A stretch of DNA of 64,000 nt, from assembly GCA_048887225.1 (NCBI GenBank), contig JBHLJY010000004.1:128001-192000 (forward strand), given 5' to 3'. Below the pieces are notes generated by a model. The model had not been told where the DNA came from. It saw only the letters and a program-made list of their open reading frames with translations, and searched no databases. Positions 53,801 to 59,010 of this stretch are shown piece after piece. This DNA is from Candidatus Hodarchaeota archaeon (GTDB lineage: Archaea; Asgardarchaeota; Lokiarchaeia; Sigyniarchaeales; SOKP01). Within the stretch, counting starts at the first letter, position 1, and every line of letters begins with the position of its first letter. The translations under genes and the position numbers were made by a program.

Positions 53801-54064
53801 TTGAAAAAATTGAGTGAAAAGGAAAATAACGAATTTGAAATTGATAAGGAATTAGATACAACCGGATTATATTGTCCAGAACCCTTGTTTGAAGTACGAA
53901 ATCTATCTGAAACTCTTGAAATTGGCCAGTGTTTTAAAATAATTGCTGATGATCCGGCCGCTGAAGAAGATTTATCGAGGTGGGCTAAAAGAACTGGCAC
54001 AGAAATTCTCGATTTTAGAAAGGAGGATAATATTTTAACATTTATTTTTAAGAAAAACAAATGA
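53801..54064 (+). CDS. tusA: TusA/SirA sulfur carrier
   Basis: LDTTGLYCPEP, ADDPAA.EDL.RWA. Confidence 0.9.
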   Translation: MKKLSEKENNEFEIDKELDTTGLYCPEPLFEVRNLSETLEIGQCFKIIADDPAAEEDLSRWAKRTGTEILDFRKEDNILTFIFKKNK

Positions 54065-54081: not shown

Positions 54082-54438
54082 ATGGGAAAAAGTATATTAT
54101 ATGTACAAACAAGTGATAATCCTGAACGCCAGTATTCCCCCTTAGTGTTAGCGCAAACAGCGAAAGCTATGGATATTGATGCAACAGTTTATTATTTGGG
54201 GGCAGGCTTAAGAATATTAAAACCAGGCGAAGCTGAAAGAATAAAGCTAGGCGATTTTCCATCTGTTAAAGAAATGATTGATAAGACCTTAGAAGCGGGG
54301 GTTGAAATTTTAGTTTGTGAAGCTTCAAAAAGAATGTTAGGATGGGAGAAAGTTGAACTAATTCCAGGTGTAAAAATTGTAGGAGCAGCTACTCTAAACG
54401 ATTTAGTATTGGAGCATGATGCAACCCAATGGTTTTAA
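54082..54438 (+). CDS. DsrE/DsrF-like sulfur relay protein
   Basis: LA.TA.AMD...VYYLG.G, GV.ILVC..S, ELIPGV.IVGAA; SD GGGTGA. Confidence 0.85.
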   Translation: MGKSILYVQTSDNPERQYSPLVLAQTAKAMDIDATVYYLGAGLRILKPGEAERIKLGDFPSVKEMIDKTLEAGVEILVCEASKRMLGWEKVELIPGVKIVGAATLNDLVLEHDATQWF

Positions 54439-54498: not shown

Positions 54499-55689
54499 AT
54501 GAGCATCTATTTAGATTATCAGGCTGCGAAACCCATAGATGATAGAGTTTTATCAGAGATGTTACCGTATTTTAAACAAAAATTCGCAAATCCTTCTTCT
54601 TTACACAATGATGGTGATATTGCAACCGATATTTTAGATATATCACGTAAAAAGGTTGCTAAATTTATTAATGCACCGAACGCATCTGATATCATTTTTA
54701 CTGCGAGTGCCACAGAATCAAATAATCTAGCTCTTATCGGTGCTTCAATGAATCGGAAAAACAAAGGAAATCATATCATTATTTCTGAAACTGAGCATAT
54801 TTCAATATTGAACTTAGCAAAATATTTAGAAAGACAAGGATTTGAAATTAGTAGAGTTCCTGTGGATCAATATGGAATCATAAGACTTGATAAATTAGAA
54901 CGCTTAATTAAAGATAAAACCATTTTAATATCAATCGCTTCGGCTAGCAACGAAGTAGGTTCTCTTCAACCATTAAAAGAAATAAGTGAAATCGCTTCTG
55001 ATAAAAAAATTTTATTTCATACTGACGCCGTAGCTAGCGAATCTACTATTCCGATTGATGTTCAGAGGATTCCAATTGATTTAATTACATTATCTTCAAA
55101 TGACATTTACGGCCCTAGAGGTGTAGGTGCCCTATACTTGAAAAAAGGAGTTCGAGTAAATCCAGTAATAATAGGTGGAGGTCAAGAAAGGGGTATTAGA
55201 TCAGGTTCTGAAAATATACCAGGAATAGTAGGTTTTGCTAAAGCAGCTGAGATTATGATGGAGGAAATGGAGATTGAGGCAGAACGCCTTAAAAAATTGA
55301 GAGACAAAATTATAAAAGAAATATTAGAAACGATTCCAAAATCTTATTTAAATGGACATCCCGAAAAAAGACTTCCAAATAACGTACATTTTAGATTTGA
55401 TTATATTGAGGGAGAGTCCTTAATACTCGGTTTAAAAGACGAAAATATTGCGGCTGCGACAGGTTCTGCGTGTACTTCAAAAACATTAGAACCTTCTCAC
55501 ACATTAATAGCAATGGGTTTGTTGCATAAAGAAGCTCACGGAAGTTTATTACTTTCATTGGGACGATTCACAAAAAACTCAGATGTCAATAAAGTCATAG
55601 AAGTTTTACCTGGAGTTGTCAAAAGATTAAGGATTATATCACCACTAACACCTCCTGATTTATTAGAACAATATAATGAGGTGAAATAA
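54499..55689 (+). CDS. iscS: cysteine desulfurase, class I
   Basis: IYLDYQA, FANPSS.H, TASATESNN, EH.S, HTDAV, GGGQERG.RSGSEN, ATGSACTS. The usual SxHK PLP-lysine motif reads SSNDIYGPRG. Confidence 0.9.
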   Translation: MSIYLDYQAAKPIDDRVLSEMLPYFKQKFANPSSLHNDGDIATDILDISRKKVAKFINAPNASDIIFTASATESNNLALIGASMNRKNKGNHIIISETEHISILNLAKYLERQGFEISRVPVDQYGIIRLDKLERLIKDKTILISIASASNEVGSLQPLKEISEIASDKKILFHTDAVASESTIPIDVQRIPIDLITLSSNDIYGPRGVGALYLKKGVRVNPVIIGGGQERGIRSGSENIPGIVGFAKAAEIMMEEMEIEAERLKKLRDKIIKEILETIPKSYLNGHPEKRLPNNVHFRFDYIEGESLILGLKDENIAAATGSACTSKTLEPSHTLIAMGLLHKEAHGSLLLSLGRFTKNSDVNKVIEVLPGVVKRLRIISPLTPPDLLEQYNEVK

Positions 55690-55694
55690 TATCA

Positions 55695-56498
55695 ATGAAA
55701 TCTACAAATTATAGTGAAAAAGTTCTGGATCATTTTAGAAATCCTAGAAATATGGGTGAAATTGAAAATCCAGATGGTTTCGGTCGCGTTGGAAATCCTG
55801 TTTGCGGTGATCTAATGTTTATGTATATAAAAGTAGGAAAAAATGAGAATGATGAAGAAATTATTGATGAGATCAAATTTAAAACATTTGGATGTGGTTC
55901 AGCAGTGGCAACATCATCAATGATTACTGAGATGGCAAAAGGTAAAACACTTGATGAGGCTTTTAAAATAACAAGACAGGATGTGGCAGATGAACTAGAA
56001 GGCCTGCCACCTATCAAAATGCATTGTTCCAATTTAGCTGCTGATGCATTACAGGCTGCCATCCGAAATTATCGTGAAGGGACAGAACCAGAGGTTAGTG
56101 TAGCAACATCATGTCAAATAGAGATAGAAGTTATTCTCGGATTTGATAAATTTTTAGGAAAAGGAGTTTATAAACAAAAACCTGATAATTTGGAAGAATT
56201 AAGAGATAAAAGAATATTAATCATAGATTCTGGTGATGATTCTTTAGAACTTGCTATGAACTTAAGTAAATATACAGGAAGAGTTATCCTGGTTACTTCT
56301 TCTAAAGAGGTTCCTGGAAGAGATCAGTTGGCGAAAGATATAAAAAAGTCCGATGTAAAAATATTGTTTCAATCTGAGCTGATTGAAATTAAAGGAGAGT
56401 TAGATGAGGTCGAAAAAGTAGTAATTCATGATTTTGATGAGGATGAGAATTATGAATTATTCGTGGATGTTGTAATCCATTTAGATTATAGAGGTTAG
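55695..56498 (+). CDS. iscU: IscU/NifU-N scaffold fused to a degenerate TrxB-type NAD(P)-binding domain
   Basis: YSEKVLDHF.NPRN.G, GNPVCGD, FGCGSA, LPPIKMHCS; C-terminal FLGKGV...LRDKRILIIDSGDDSLELA..LSK...V.LV...EIKG...VEKV......VD.V. Confidence 0.9.
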   Translation: MKSTNYSEKVLDHFRNPRNMGEIENPDGFGRVGNPVCGDLMFMYIKVGKNENDEEIIDEIKFKTFGCGSAVATSSMITEMAKGKTLDEAFKITRQDVADELEGLPPIKMHCSNLAADALQAAIRNYREGTEPEVSVATSCQIEIEVILGFDKFLGKGVYKQKPDNLEELRDKRILIIDSGDDSLELAMNLSKYTGRVILVTSSKEVPGRDQLAKDIKKSDVKILFQSELIEIKGELDEVEKVVIHDFDEDENYELFVDVVIHLDYRG

Positions 56499-56634: not shown

Positions 56635-59010
56635 ATGAGTAAAGTACTAATTGTAGGTGGAGTAGCCGGGGGGGCATCTGCTGCAGCCCGCCTTCGAAGA
56701 ATGAAGGAGGATTTCGAGATAATTGTATTGGATAAGGGACCTTATGTTTCTTTCGCCAATTGTGGTTTACCTTATTATGTTGGAGATGTAATAAAGGAAC
56801 GGAAATCTTTAGAATTAGTTTCACCTCGTCTTTTTAAATTATGGTTTAAAATTGATGTAAGGGTAAATAATGAAGTATTATCAATCGAACGAGAGAAAAA
56901 GAGAGTAAAAGTAAGAGATTTAATAAAGTCAGAGGATTACACATTAGAATATGACTATCTTTTATTAGCTACAGGATCAACTCCAAATATTCCTCCTTTT
57001 CAGGGGCTTGATTCTGTTCCATATCATTCAATTTGGACAATCCCCGATGCAGTAAAAATAAGAGATTTTATTGATAAATATAAAATAAATAAAGCAGTGA
57101 TTGTTGGAGGAGGATTCATAGGATTAGAAATGGCAGAAAATTTAGCTAAGAAAGGGATAAAAGTAAAAATAGTGGAAATGTTTGACCAAGTAATGCCTCC
57201 AATTGACAAGGAAATGGCTCAATTTATTCATCAAGAATTAATTTTAAATGGTGTGTGCTTAGTTTTAGAAGATCCAGTTGATTCCTTTGGACGATCGGAT
57301 AATGATAAACCGTTTGTAAAAACAAAAGGCGGTCGTATAATTGAAACAGATCTGATTATTTTATCTATTGGGATAAGGCCTCAAAGCAAATTGGCTAAAT
57401 TAGCAGGACTCGAATTGAGTCAGGGAGGATATATTATTGTCAATGATGAGATGCGGACATCTGATCCTAATATTTATGCTGTTGGAGATGTCGTTCAAGT
57501 TCTCCATTATCAAACCAAGGAACCAATTTCGATAGCTTTAGCTGGACCTGCAAATAAACAAGGAAGAATTGCAGCAGATAATATTTCAGGAAGAAAAATG
57601 CAATATAAGGGGATTTTAGGCGCTTCAGTAGTAAAAGTTTTTGATTTAACTATAGCTTCTGTAGGACTTACAGAGAAACAACTTAAAAACATTGACATTA
57701 AGTATGAAAAAGTATATGTCCATCCAAATAATCATGCTGGTTATTATCCGGGAGCCACACCACTCGCTATTAAATTAATTTTCGAGGTGCCATCTGGAAA
57801 AGTTCTTGGGGCTCAAATTGTAGGCGGAATGGGAACCGATAAAAGAACTGATGTTATTTCAACGATTATAAAAATGAATGGTAGTGTTTTTGATTTAGAG
57901 GAACTCGAACTTACTTATGCTCCTCCTTATAGTTCTGCTAAAGATCCAGTCAATATGGCGGGTTTTGTAGCATCTAATTTTTTAAGAGGAGATATTTCAA
58001 TTAAACAATGGCATGACATTGATAAGTTTAAAGAAAATGAGGGATTCATTTTAGATGTTAGAACAACTGCTGAATATGAGGCGAGTAGGATTGAAGGCTC
58101 AACTAACATCCCCTTGCATGAGTTAAGAACAAGATTAAATGATTTACCAAGTAAAAAACCTATAATAGTATACTGTGAAGTCGGCTATAGAAGCTATTTA
58201 GCAACTCGAATACTATTACAGTCTGGTTTTAAAGAAGTTTATGAACTAACTGGAGGTTTTAATTTATATGAGATGGCTAATGCTAAAACAGAGGATATTA
58301 TTGCTGCATGTGGTGGTTCTGCACCTATTATGGAGGAATATATTAAACAGAAATCTACTGAGAGTGATAAATACATAATAGTTGATTGTAGCGGTTTAGC
58401 ATGCCCAGGACCTTTAAATGCAATGATAAAATCTCTTGAAACCTTGCCTCAGAATAAGAAGTTAAAGGTCTATGCAACAGATCCAGGATATAAATCAAGT
58501 GTCGAGGCCTATGCGAAATTGAATGAAGCAGTTCAATTAATATATTTAGGAAAAGAAGAAGGTAAATTAGTTGCTACACTAGAAAAAGGAACAACACCAT
58601 TCATTGAAGTTGAAGTACCAACTAAGGTAAGAAAAAAGTCTAGAAAAGAAATACGGGGTCCAAATGCACCTGCTTTATCGGATATCTCACCAGAGGAACT
58701 ATACGAAAGAGTTGATTCAGATGATCCACCTGCGATCCTTATCGACGTACGCACACCTGAAGAATATTATGGCCCTCATGGACGTATAAAAAGTGCTAAA
58801 TTAATCCCTTTAGGTGAATTAATGAATAATATAGATCAATTAGGGGATTTTAAAGAAGAAGAAATAGTGACAATTTGTCATAGTGGCGCACGCTCGATGA
58901 TGGCAGCACAATTTTTAGCGCAAGCAGGATTCAAGGATATTAGAAACCTTACGGGAGGAATGATGATGTGGCATAGAAAAAATTTTCCAGTTGCGAGAGG
59001 GAAACATTAA
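56635..59010 (+). CDS. CoA-disulfide/persulfide reductase + rhodanese + TusA + rhodanese fusion
   Basis: GGVAGGASAA, SFANCGLPY, GGGFIGLE, HAGYYPGA, YAPPYS; rhodanese YCEVGYRS; TusA DCSGLACPGP; rhodanese ICHSGARS. Confidence 0.92.
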   Translation: MSKVLIVGGVAGGASAAARLRRMKEDFEIIVLDKGPYVSFANCGLPYYVGDVIKERKSLELVSPRLFKLWFKIDVRVNNEVLSIEREKKRVKVRDLIKSEDYTLEYDYLLLATGSTPNIPPFQGLDSVPYHSIWTIPDAVKIRDFIDKYKINKAVIVGGGFIGLEMAENLAKKGIKVKIVEMFDQVMPPIDKEMAQFIHQELILNGVCLVLEDPVDSFGRSDNDKPFVKTKGGRIIETDLIILSIGIRPQSKLAKLAGLELSQGGYIIVNDEMRTSDPNIYAVGDVVQVLHYQTKEPISIALAGPANKQGRIAADNISGRKMQYKGILGASVVKVFDLTIASVGLTEKQLKNIDIKYEKVYVHPNNHAGYYPGATPLAIKLIFEVPSGKVLGAQIVGGMGTDKRTDVISTIIKMNGSVFDLEELELTYAPPYSSAKDPVNMAGFVASNFLRGDISIKQWHDIDKFKENEGFILDVRTTAEYEASRIEGSTNIPLHELRTRLNDLPSKKPIIVYCEVGYRSYLATRILLQSGFKEVYELTGGFNLYEMANAKTEDIIAACGGSAPIMEEYIKQKSTESDKYIIVDCSGLACPGPLNAMIKSLETLPQNKKLKVYATDPGYKSSVEAYAKLNEAVQLIYLGKEEGKLVATLEKGTTPFIEVEVPTKVRKKSRKEIRGPNAPALSDISPEELYERVDSDDPPAILIDVRTPEEYYGPHGRIKSAKLIPLGELMNNIDQLGDFKEEEIVTICHSGARSMMAAQFLAQAGFKDIRNLTGGMMMWHRKNFPVARGKH

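Follow-up and report, generated by a model that had tools for sequence, protein, structure and literature searches.

The minimal archaeal ISC (MIS) system consists of IscS and IscU only, and its ability to work on its own has been described as unvalidated (PMC13066941). In the type of IscS known from Archaeoglobus fulgidus, the PLP-binding Lys is replaced by Asp. This substitution is reported to abolish the cysteine desulfurase activity of IscS, and the A. fulgidus protein may do no more than lend a Cys ligand to the cluster held by IscU (PMC8918507, PMC7585200). How a cluster is assembled with a desulfurase-dead IscS is an open question (PMC8918507). Here, we analyzed a stretch of 64,000 nucleotides of Asgard archaeal DNA (the window), in which an operon with an IscS of this type encodes an IscU fused to the remnant of a thioredoxin reductase (TrxR).

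The gene is an open reading frame on the forward strand (55695-56498) that encodes 267 amino acids without an internal stop. The analysis confirmed three parts in its product: an intact IscU, a disordered linker, and a vestigial TrxR central domain of ~120 amino acids. The IscU scaffold domain takes up residues 1-131 (55695..56087, +). Pfam places NifU_N over residues 6-128 (E 3e-46), and phmmer against the PDB matched this N-terminal half of the protein to archaeal IscU, with 7c8m and 4eb5_C as the best chains. The first-pass annotation had read an intact IscU domain with three Cys, and this reading holds: the ligands are Cys37, Cys67, and Cys111, which, along with Asp39 and His110, are invariant in a 37-sequence alignment (A1). 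The gene product is most likely a working IscU-type Fe–S scaffold. An additional Cys had been pointed out in the linker motif ATSCQ. It is residue 140 (56112-56114), within a flexible linker (residues 132-146; 56088..56132, +), and is the only one of the four Cys in the protein that is not a cluster ligand. The TrxR-type central domain, of the NAD(P)H-binding type, occupies residues 147-267 (56133..56495, +) and is referred to below as the tail. Although its presence was called correctly, its start was placed too early, as position 56080 falls in the last IscU helix and the TrxR-like part runs from ~56133 (residue 147).

That the tail follows the middle domain of TrxB, as originally proposed, is borne out by both its sequence and its predicted fold, with Pfam, phmmer, and Foldseek in agreement. 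In Pfam, residues 173-245 match the small Pyr_redox domain PF00070 with 25.5 bits (gathering score 22). Against the PDB, phmmer aligned residues 133-249 with residues 112-231 of the Entamoeba TrxR (E 2e-5), followed by further chains of TrxRs and TrxR-like FNRs. When the tail alone was compared exhaustively by phmmer with 1.8 billion representatives, the first matches were to its own small family (29 below 1e-10), and the next were to ordinary TrxRs of ~310 amino acids, aligned at their residues ~120-240. A search of the ESM Atlas returned generic Pyr_redox clusters only. The AF2 model of the full protein, built from 37 homologues, has a mean pLDDT of 83.6 and consists of two confidently modeled domains with a disordered linker between them (pLDDT <50 over residues 132-144); with a pTM of 0.49 for this monomer, the position of the tail relative to IscU is not confidently placed. 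In a Foldseek search with this model, IscU structures rank first, with 7c8m and 4eb5_C at E 1e-17 and a TM to target of 0.84-0.93, and TrxR-type central domains come next. The latter belong to TrxRs and TrxR-like proteins of S. solfataricus, T. thermophilus, Entamoeba, M. mazei, and Thermosipho (3f8d, 2zbw, 4a5l, 4zn0, and 7jyp), which align with the tail over ~127 columns (E 2e-9 to 7e-9, probability 1.0). The concern that the tail might not be TrxB-like in structure is thus answered.

The tail was also described at the outset as stripped of its catalytic and cofactor motifs, and the three substitutions named then are exact in our alignments. Where canonical TrxRs have GVSYCA(T/V)CD, with the redox-active CxxC, the tail has GVYKQKPDN in place of GVSYCATCD (residues 157-165; 56163..56189, +; alignment A2). 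The dinucleotide-binding loop GGGDSA has degenerated to DSGDDS (residues 178-183; 56226..56243, +), that is, from GxGxxA to DxGxxS, and HRR, which binds the 2'-phosphate of NADPH, has been replaced by TSS (residues 201-203; 56295..56303, +). These losses extend to the family as a whole. In a set of 143 full-length members, a CxxC was absent from every tail (0/143), and 138 of the tails are entirely free of Cys. The first position of GxGxxA is D in 129 members and H, Y, F, A, or E in the others, with G in none. At the HRR position, Thr201 is invariant and the two residues that follow are variable, and the alignment has no acidic residue at the end of strand 2 of the tail. The FAD domain is gone as well: IscU runs straight into the linker, the protein ends directly after the central domain, and neither Pfam nor the alignment detected the N- or C-terminal parts of Pyr_redox_2 in the 267 residues. 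Because three defining features are lacking, namely the FAD domain, the CxxC, and the NADPH site (GxGxxA/HRR), the protein is, as judged from its sequence, not a TrxR enzyme. We infer that its remnant neither holds a flavin nor binds NAD(P)H in the canonical manner.

The Cys of the linker is found in 138 of the 143 members, and one family accounts for most of these. In the full-length Jordarchaeia proteins discussed below, the strand LACGIPGE is its counterpart in the alignment. A role for Cys140 as an essential fourth cluster ligand was considered and is unlikely, as the residue is missing in 5/143 members across several families.

The fusion is not unique to this assembly, an outcome that the first-pass annotation had named as a sign of a chimera. 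Near-identical architectures number >300 and occur in nearly all Loki- and Thor-type genomes searched. With the tail as the query, a word-indexed search returned 322 proteins, nearly all of 256-273 amino acids with NifU_N, and wherever a source name is attached it is Promethearchaeota or Thorarchaeota. We also searched 301 genomes of the window's phylum, which the source names of the matches mark as Asgard, and counted strong tail matches in open frames of ~260-270 amino acids. Among families with more than one genome searched, such matches were present in 65/68 genomes of the window's family and in 71/76 genomes of a second large family, and several smaller families within that order and class had them too. 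An assembly chimera is therefore ruled out by an architecture common to >300 clusters and dozens of genomes. No split form of IscU and tail was found among the shorter database entries. Apparent split or stand-alone tails (P0094, P0010, P0054, P0093, P0108, and fragments that start with MHCSN) are truncated gene calls and not decayed genes, because the C-terminal helix of IscU is still present in them.

While the tail has lost its enzymatic motifs, it shows signs of being maintained. Pairwise comparisons within the window's family (NG86) gave dN/dS values of ~0.10 (tail) and 0.06 (IscU domain), which are rough because dS is near saturation (~1.5). A ratio of ~0.1 argues that the tail retains a function; on this evidence, it is under selection and hence functional, yet incapable of TrxR chemistry. 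The same data disfavor the reading of the tail as a functionless relic en route to loss. Such a relic would be expected to have lost every catalytic motif, as the tail has, and a plain IscU does occupy the same operon in two other Asgard families. However, a decaying domain is difficult to reconcile with this level of constraint, with a length and many residues conserved across at least two classes and >300 clusters, or with shorter entries that, when checked, proved to be gene-calling errors. We consider this reading highly improbable.

Conservation within the tail bears on what it might do. In A1, G157, R173, L190, R196, V197, T201, G234, and D258 are invariant, and some 16 more positions are nearly so. 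Gly180, Asp181, and Ser183 in the loop and Ala187 in the helix are nearly invariant. The first three could form a residual ligand site. If so, the tail may be a sensor that binds a nucleotide (NAD(P)H, ADP, or one akin to them) in a non-canonical way and couples the assembly or release of clusters on IscU to the redox or energy state of the cell. A Rossmann-type fold kept with high confidence and strongly purifying selection are compatible with such a role. However, the Gly at the first GxGxxA position has been replaced in all 143 members, the HRR site and an acidic residue at the end of strand 2 are both absent, and the conserved loop and helix positions also belong to the core structure of the central domain in ordinary TrxRs. 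A sensor is, in our estimation, an unlikely explanation for the tail.

A clue to the origin of the tail came from one family in which it was matched inside open frames of ~450 amino acids. One of these (L029 6197-7540, G038:C1) encodes 448 amino acids, with IscU followed by a complete TrxR-like flavoprotein that has no CxxC. Pfam identifies NifU_N and Pyr_redox_2 in this protein, the latter along its entire profile (positions 1-291 of 291). The protein has two FAD motifs, GGGPAG and GIYAAGD, and its GNGDQA loop is intact; the site of the redox disulfide reads GIYYYVTYPE, hence no CxxC, and there is no HRR. The AF2 model has a pLDDT of 87.4, and its match to complete TrxRs spans ~310 columns (E 1e-34). 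From these motifs, the 448-residue fusion is probably an active flavin reductase. The source names attached to the full-length fusions are Candidatus Freyarchaeum, Jordarchaeum, and Jordarchaeaceae. One public annotation of a full-length fusion starts at an internal Met (326 amino acids, P0221), which hides the fusion. In Jordarchaeia, a 136-residue ORF without a Pfam match lies between IscS and the full-length fusion, and an FmdE-family protein with a C-terminal zinc ribbon is encoded directly downstream of the fusion (L029 7752-8348). Stand-alone TrxR-like relatives of 308-327 amino acids, from sources with Thor-, Hod-, and Pyrohabitans-type names, also have no CxxC; in these, GGGDxA and HRR are kept.

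In a tree of the central domain (IQ-TREE, LG+C20, 115 columns, 64 rows), the short tails are united in a single clade (100/100) with a long stem (0.93), which is sister to the full-length fusions of Jordarchaeia (94/91). Both groups fall inside a CxxC-less clade (100/99) that itself lies among canonical TrxRs. Because the short tails are sister to the full-length fusions, the tail would be the relic of a TrxR-like reductase that was tethered to the scaffold. The direction of this change is suggested by the way that TrxRs are built. Their central domain is an insertion within the FAD domain, and since regaining both FAD flanks is for that reason implausible, the series is read as leading from TrxR to truncated tail. 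A TrxR would first have lost its CxxC, and the resulting flavoprotein would have been fused to IscU in an Asgard ancestor. Jordarchaeia would have retained the whole fusion, with IscU, FAD domain, and NAD(P)H domain, and in the Loki and Thor lineages both halves of the FAD domain would have been deleted and the nucleotide loop would have decayed. The tree of the IscU domain is poorly resolved. In it, the fused IscUs and the plain IscUs of three other Asgard families (f5, f6, and f20) fall into one supported clade (99/97), to which the plain paralogues of Loki genomes do not belong. A topology in which the fused forms are held together was not rejected (AU p 0.33), and a single fusion event is neither supported nor rejected by this tree.

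The genes around the fusion form an operon that is conserved across families, as seen when the proteins of the window were compared by tblastn with 30 related loci. In the window, it begins with a gene for a TusA sulfur carrier (53801..54064, +; Pfam TusA, E 6.5e-19) and continues with a DsrE-like gene (54082..54438, +; Pfam DsrE/DrsE_2) and with IscS (54499..55689, +), which ends 5 nt upstream of the fusion. TusA lies upstream of IscS in most of the related loci, the pairing of IscS with IscU is conserved in most of those examined, and the DsrE-like gene has been kept in families f1, f2, f4, f5, f6, and f9. Two of the three other Asgard families whose plain IscUs group with the fused forms have the operon with a plain IscU. 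In one Asgard family with a plain IscU in the operon (L061 3356-4195, G002:C10), three tandem TusA-like genes are located upstream of DsrE-IscS-IscU.

The IscS of this operon is of the lysine-less Archaeoglobus IscS2 type. It matches PDB 4eb5_A by phmmer (E 1e-139), and its SSNDIYGP matches the A. fulgidus motif. Asp202 (55102-55104) takes the place of the PLP-binding Lys, and the loop with Cys325 (GSAC) is kept. SND is nearly invariant among the operon IscS proteins (alignment A3), and Asp replaces Lys in Jordarchaeia as well. By analogy with what has been reported for this type (PMC8918507, PMC7585200), the operon IscS would be desulfurase-dead. The window's genome also has a second ISC-like locus (G000:C10), with a Lys-containing IscS of 408 amino acids (L043 1616-2842) and two tandem plain IscU paralogues of 126 and 132 amino acids (L043 6001-6381 and 6453-6851). 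Consequently, the fused IscU is one of several IscU paralogues in this genome. In the second of the plain paralogues, the motif around the first ligand Cys is divergent. Genes near this locus include one for a cation-diffusion-facilitator-like membrane protein and one for a P-type ATPase.

The first-pass annotation had viewed the tail as a non-enzymatic docking module that might recruit a reductase or the persulfide reductase encoded next door. The neighbor lies directly downstream (56635..59010, +) and encodes 791 amino acids, which combine, according to Pfam, a CoA-disulfide-reductase-like (CoADR) part with rhodanese, TusA, and a further rhodanese. Docking of a separate reductase in trans, whether a TrxR-like flavoprotein or this CoA-disulfide or persulfide reductase, would provide IscU with electrons, and it would suit a tail that descends from a reductase tethered to IscU. 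In the window, the CoADR-rhodanese-TusA-rhodanese gene does come after the fusion, and one Thor-type genome with a truncated fusion (G245, L015) also has a stand-alone CxxC-less TrxR-like protein (P0241). However, the 791-residue neighbor adjoins the fusion only in f1 loci, f1 being the window's own family, which led us to reject it as a universal partner and leaves its recruitment by the tail without backing. Nor did a search of the window's genome with P0241 recover a close CxxC-less stand-alone partner: the two best matches are canonical CxxC TrxRs, the only kind found, and the best of them is 28% identical. Recruitment of a reductase in trans is therefore an improbable role for the tail. 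Two other observations on TrxR-like sequences in this genome are worth recording. A protein of 327 amino acids (G000:C25; L036 1486-2469, minus strand) keeps a CxxC (CALC), has GNDEEA in place of GGGDSA, and has no HRR; from its sequence, it may be a thioredoxin reductase of the NADPH-independent type. A weak Pyr_redox-like match (G000:C5:75016-75234; L003, minus strand) lies in a frame of 1180 amino acids with a single in-frame TGA, which could be a selenocysteine codon, a frameshift, or the boundary of two genes.

IscS had been put forward for a multimer prediction in the first-pass annotation. In a three-chain model of IscS, the IscU domain, and the tail, scored with the tail as partner, the ipSAE was 0.54 (0.57, 0.54, and 0.50 in individual runs), and the best of three controls, one of which had only IscS replaced, reached 0.00. 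The pLDDT of the partner did not fall below 86, and 66% or more of the contacts were common to the runs. In the calibration of this tool, its mark was reached by 58/80 solved complexes and 2/110 mismatched pairs; scores of 0.60 or below account for 7 of the 80 solved complexes and for both passing mismatches, and such scores are rated by the tool as wrong in most cases, except where the pairing was already likely a priori. The prediction thus lends weak support to a contact of the tail with IscS. It also speaks to the docking module as first conceived. A non-enzymatic docking function is consistent with the purifying selection and with this weakly predicted contact, but the part of the proposal that concerned a reductase is not, as the contact depends on IscS.

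The dependence of the signal on IscS also matters for another possible role, in which the tail drives the association of IscU with IscU or the hand-over of clusters to clients or carriers. For example, it might join two [2Fe-2S] scaffolds to form a [4Fe-4S] cluster or replace missing HscAB or carrier factors. Minimal archaeal ISC systems have no chaperones or carriers (PMC13066941), and the tail is acidic (pI 4.7, net charge -9) and attached by a flexible linker. The acidity says little in itself, because the pI of the IscU domain is similarly low (5.0). However, the complex signal vanished on replacement of IscS, although the IscU domain remained, and we regard this role as quite unlikely.

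The reading that we favor, to which we give about an even chance of being correct, is that the tail is the relic of a flavoprotein once tethered to IscU and now serves, in the scaffold of a lysine-less-IscS operon, as a cofactor-less module that packs on IscS. The remnant would have been kept by purifying selection and would reach its partner by way of the flexible linker. By packing against IscS, it may stabilize or tune the IscS–IscU assembly complex. Any such contribution would be dispensable in principle, given that a plain IscU serves the same operon in two other Asgard families.

We found no published description of an IscU–TrxR-like fusion, vestigial or full-length, in the literature searched. 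What is new here is the full-length IscU–TrxR-like fusion of Jordarchaeia at the same operon position, with the tail, its sister in the domain tree, as the relic of a scaffold-tethered reductase. A more ambitious synthesis would see an Asgard series at one operon position, running across a plain IscU, the IscU–flavin reductase of Jordarchaeia, and the IscU with an exapted middle domain of Loki and Thor lineages, in which the tail regulates IscS–IscU through IscS. We put this forward tentatively and think it rather doubtful as a whole. If it were true, the Jordarchaeia protein would combine scaffold and reductase in a self-contained unit and deliver electrons straight to cluster assembly in minimal ISC systems that have no ferredoxin, and the vestigial tail would represent an accessory factor of a new kind, one that binds IscS and thereby regulates the lysine-less IscS–IscU complex. 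The Jordarchaeia fusion is a direct and testable electron-donor candidate for minimal ISC systems, and the tail of Loki and Thor lineages is a clear example of an enzyme domain turned non-catalytic. No known group is more closely related to eukaryotes than the Asgard archaea. With Asgard associations also reported for ISCU and NFS1 (PMC12872458), the Fe–S machinery of this group is of wider evolutionary interest.

Set against known systems, the operon resembles the minimal ISC (MIS) pair IscS2–IscU of A. fulgidus (PDB 4EB5/4EB7), with which it shares the Lys-to-Asp change in SSNDIYGP and the adjacency of the two genes. The IscU domains are 63-65% identical in Foldseek and have the same ligand set. 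However, the A. fulgidus IscU chain in the PDB has 153 residues and no TrxR-like tail, whereas the IscU of the window carries an additional domain of 120 amino acids, and its operon has TusA and DsrE genes as well. The modular NifU/Nfu scaffolds offer a parallel of another sort, as they also join extra C-terminal modules to an IscU-like N-terminal domain. In NifU, one module is ferredoxin-like and the other is an Nfu domain, with Cys that bind clusters. The window's protein, in contrast, has no Pfam match to a ferredoxin-like or Nfu domain, and Cys140 is its only Cys beyond the ligands.

For the tail itself, the counterpart is the central NADPH domain of low-Mr TrxB, to which it is homologous and colinear in both sequence and fold (TrxR residues ~112-240), although it comes without the FAD domain, CxxC, GxGxxA, or HRR. 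The TrxR-like ferredoxin/flavodoxin:NADP+ oxidoreductases (2zbw, 3ab1, and 6gas) have, like the tail, a TrxR fold without the redox disulfide, and the stand-alone CxxC-less homologues of Asgard archaea (P0235-P0243) belong to the same CxxC-less clade. Unlike the window's protein, both are full-length, with FAD, GGGDxA, and HRR, and neither is fused to IscU. The layout of a TrxR-like ferredoxin:NADP+ reductase, with FAD and NAD(P)H domains, is missing from the window's protein but is found in its relatives from Jordarchaeia (448 residues; for example, L029 6197-7540 and P0222-P0234). These relatives likewise follow TusA and the lysine-less IscS in the operon and have an IscU domain that is ~70% identical, a central domain that is the closest relative of the tail, and the loss of CxxC in common. 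The Jordarchaeia fusion keeps both halves of the FAD domain and the GNGDQA loop, all of which the window's protein has lost.
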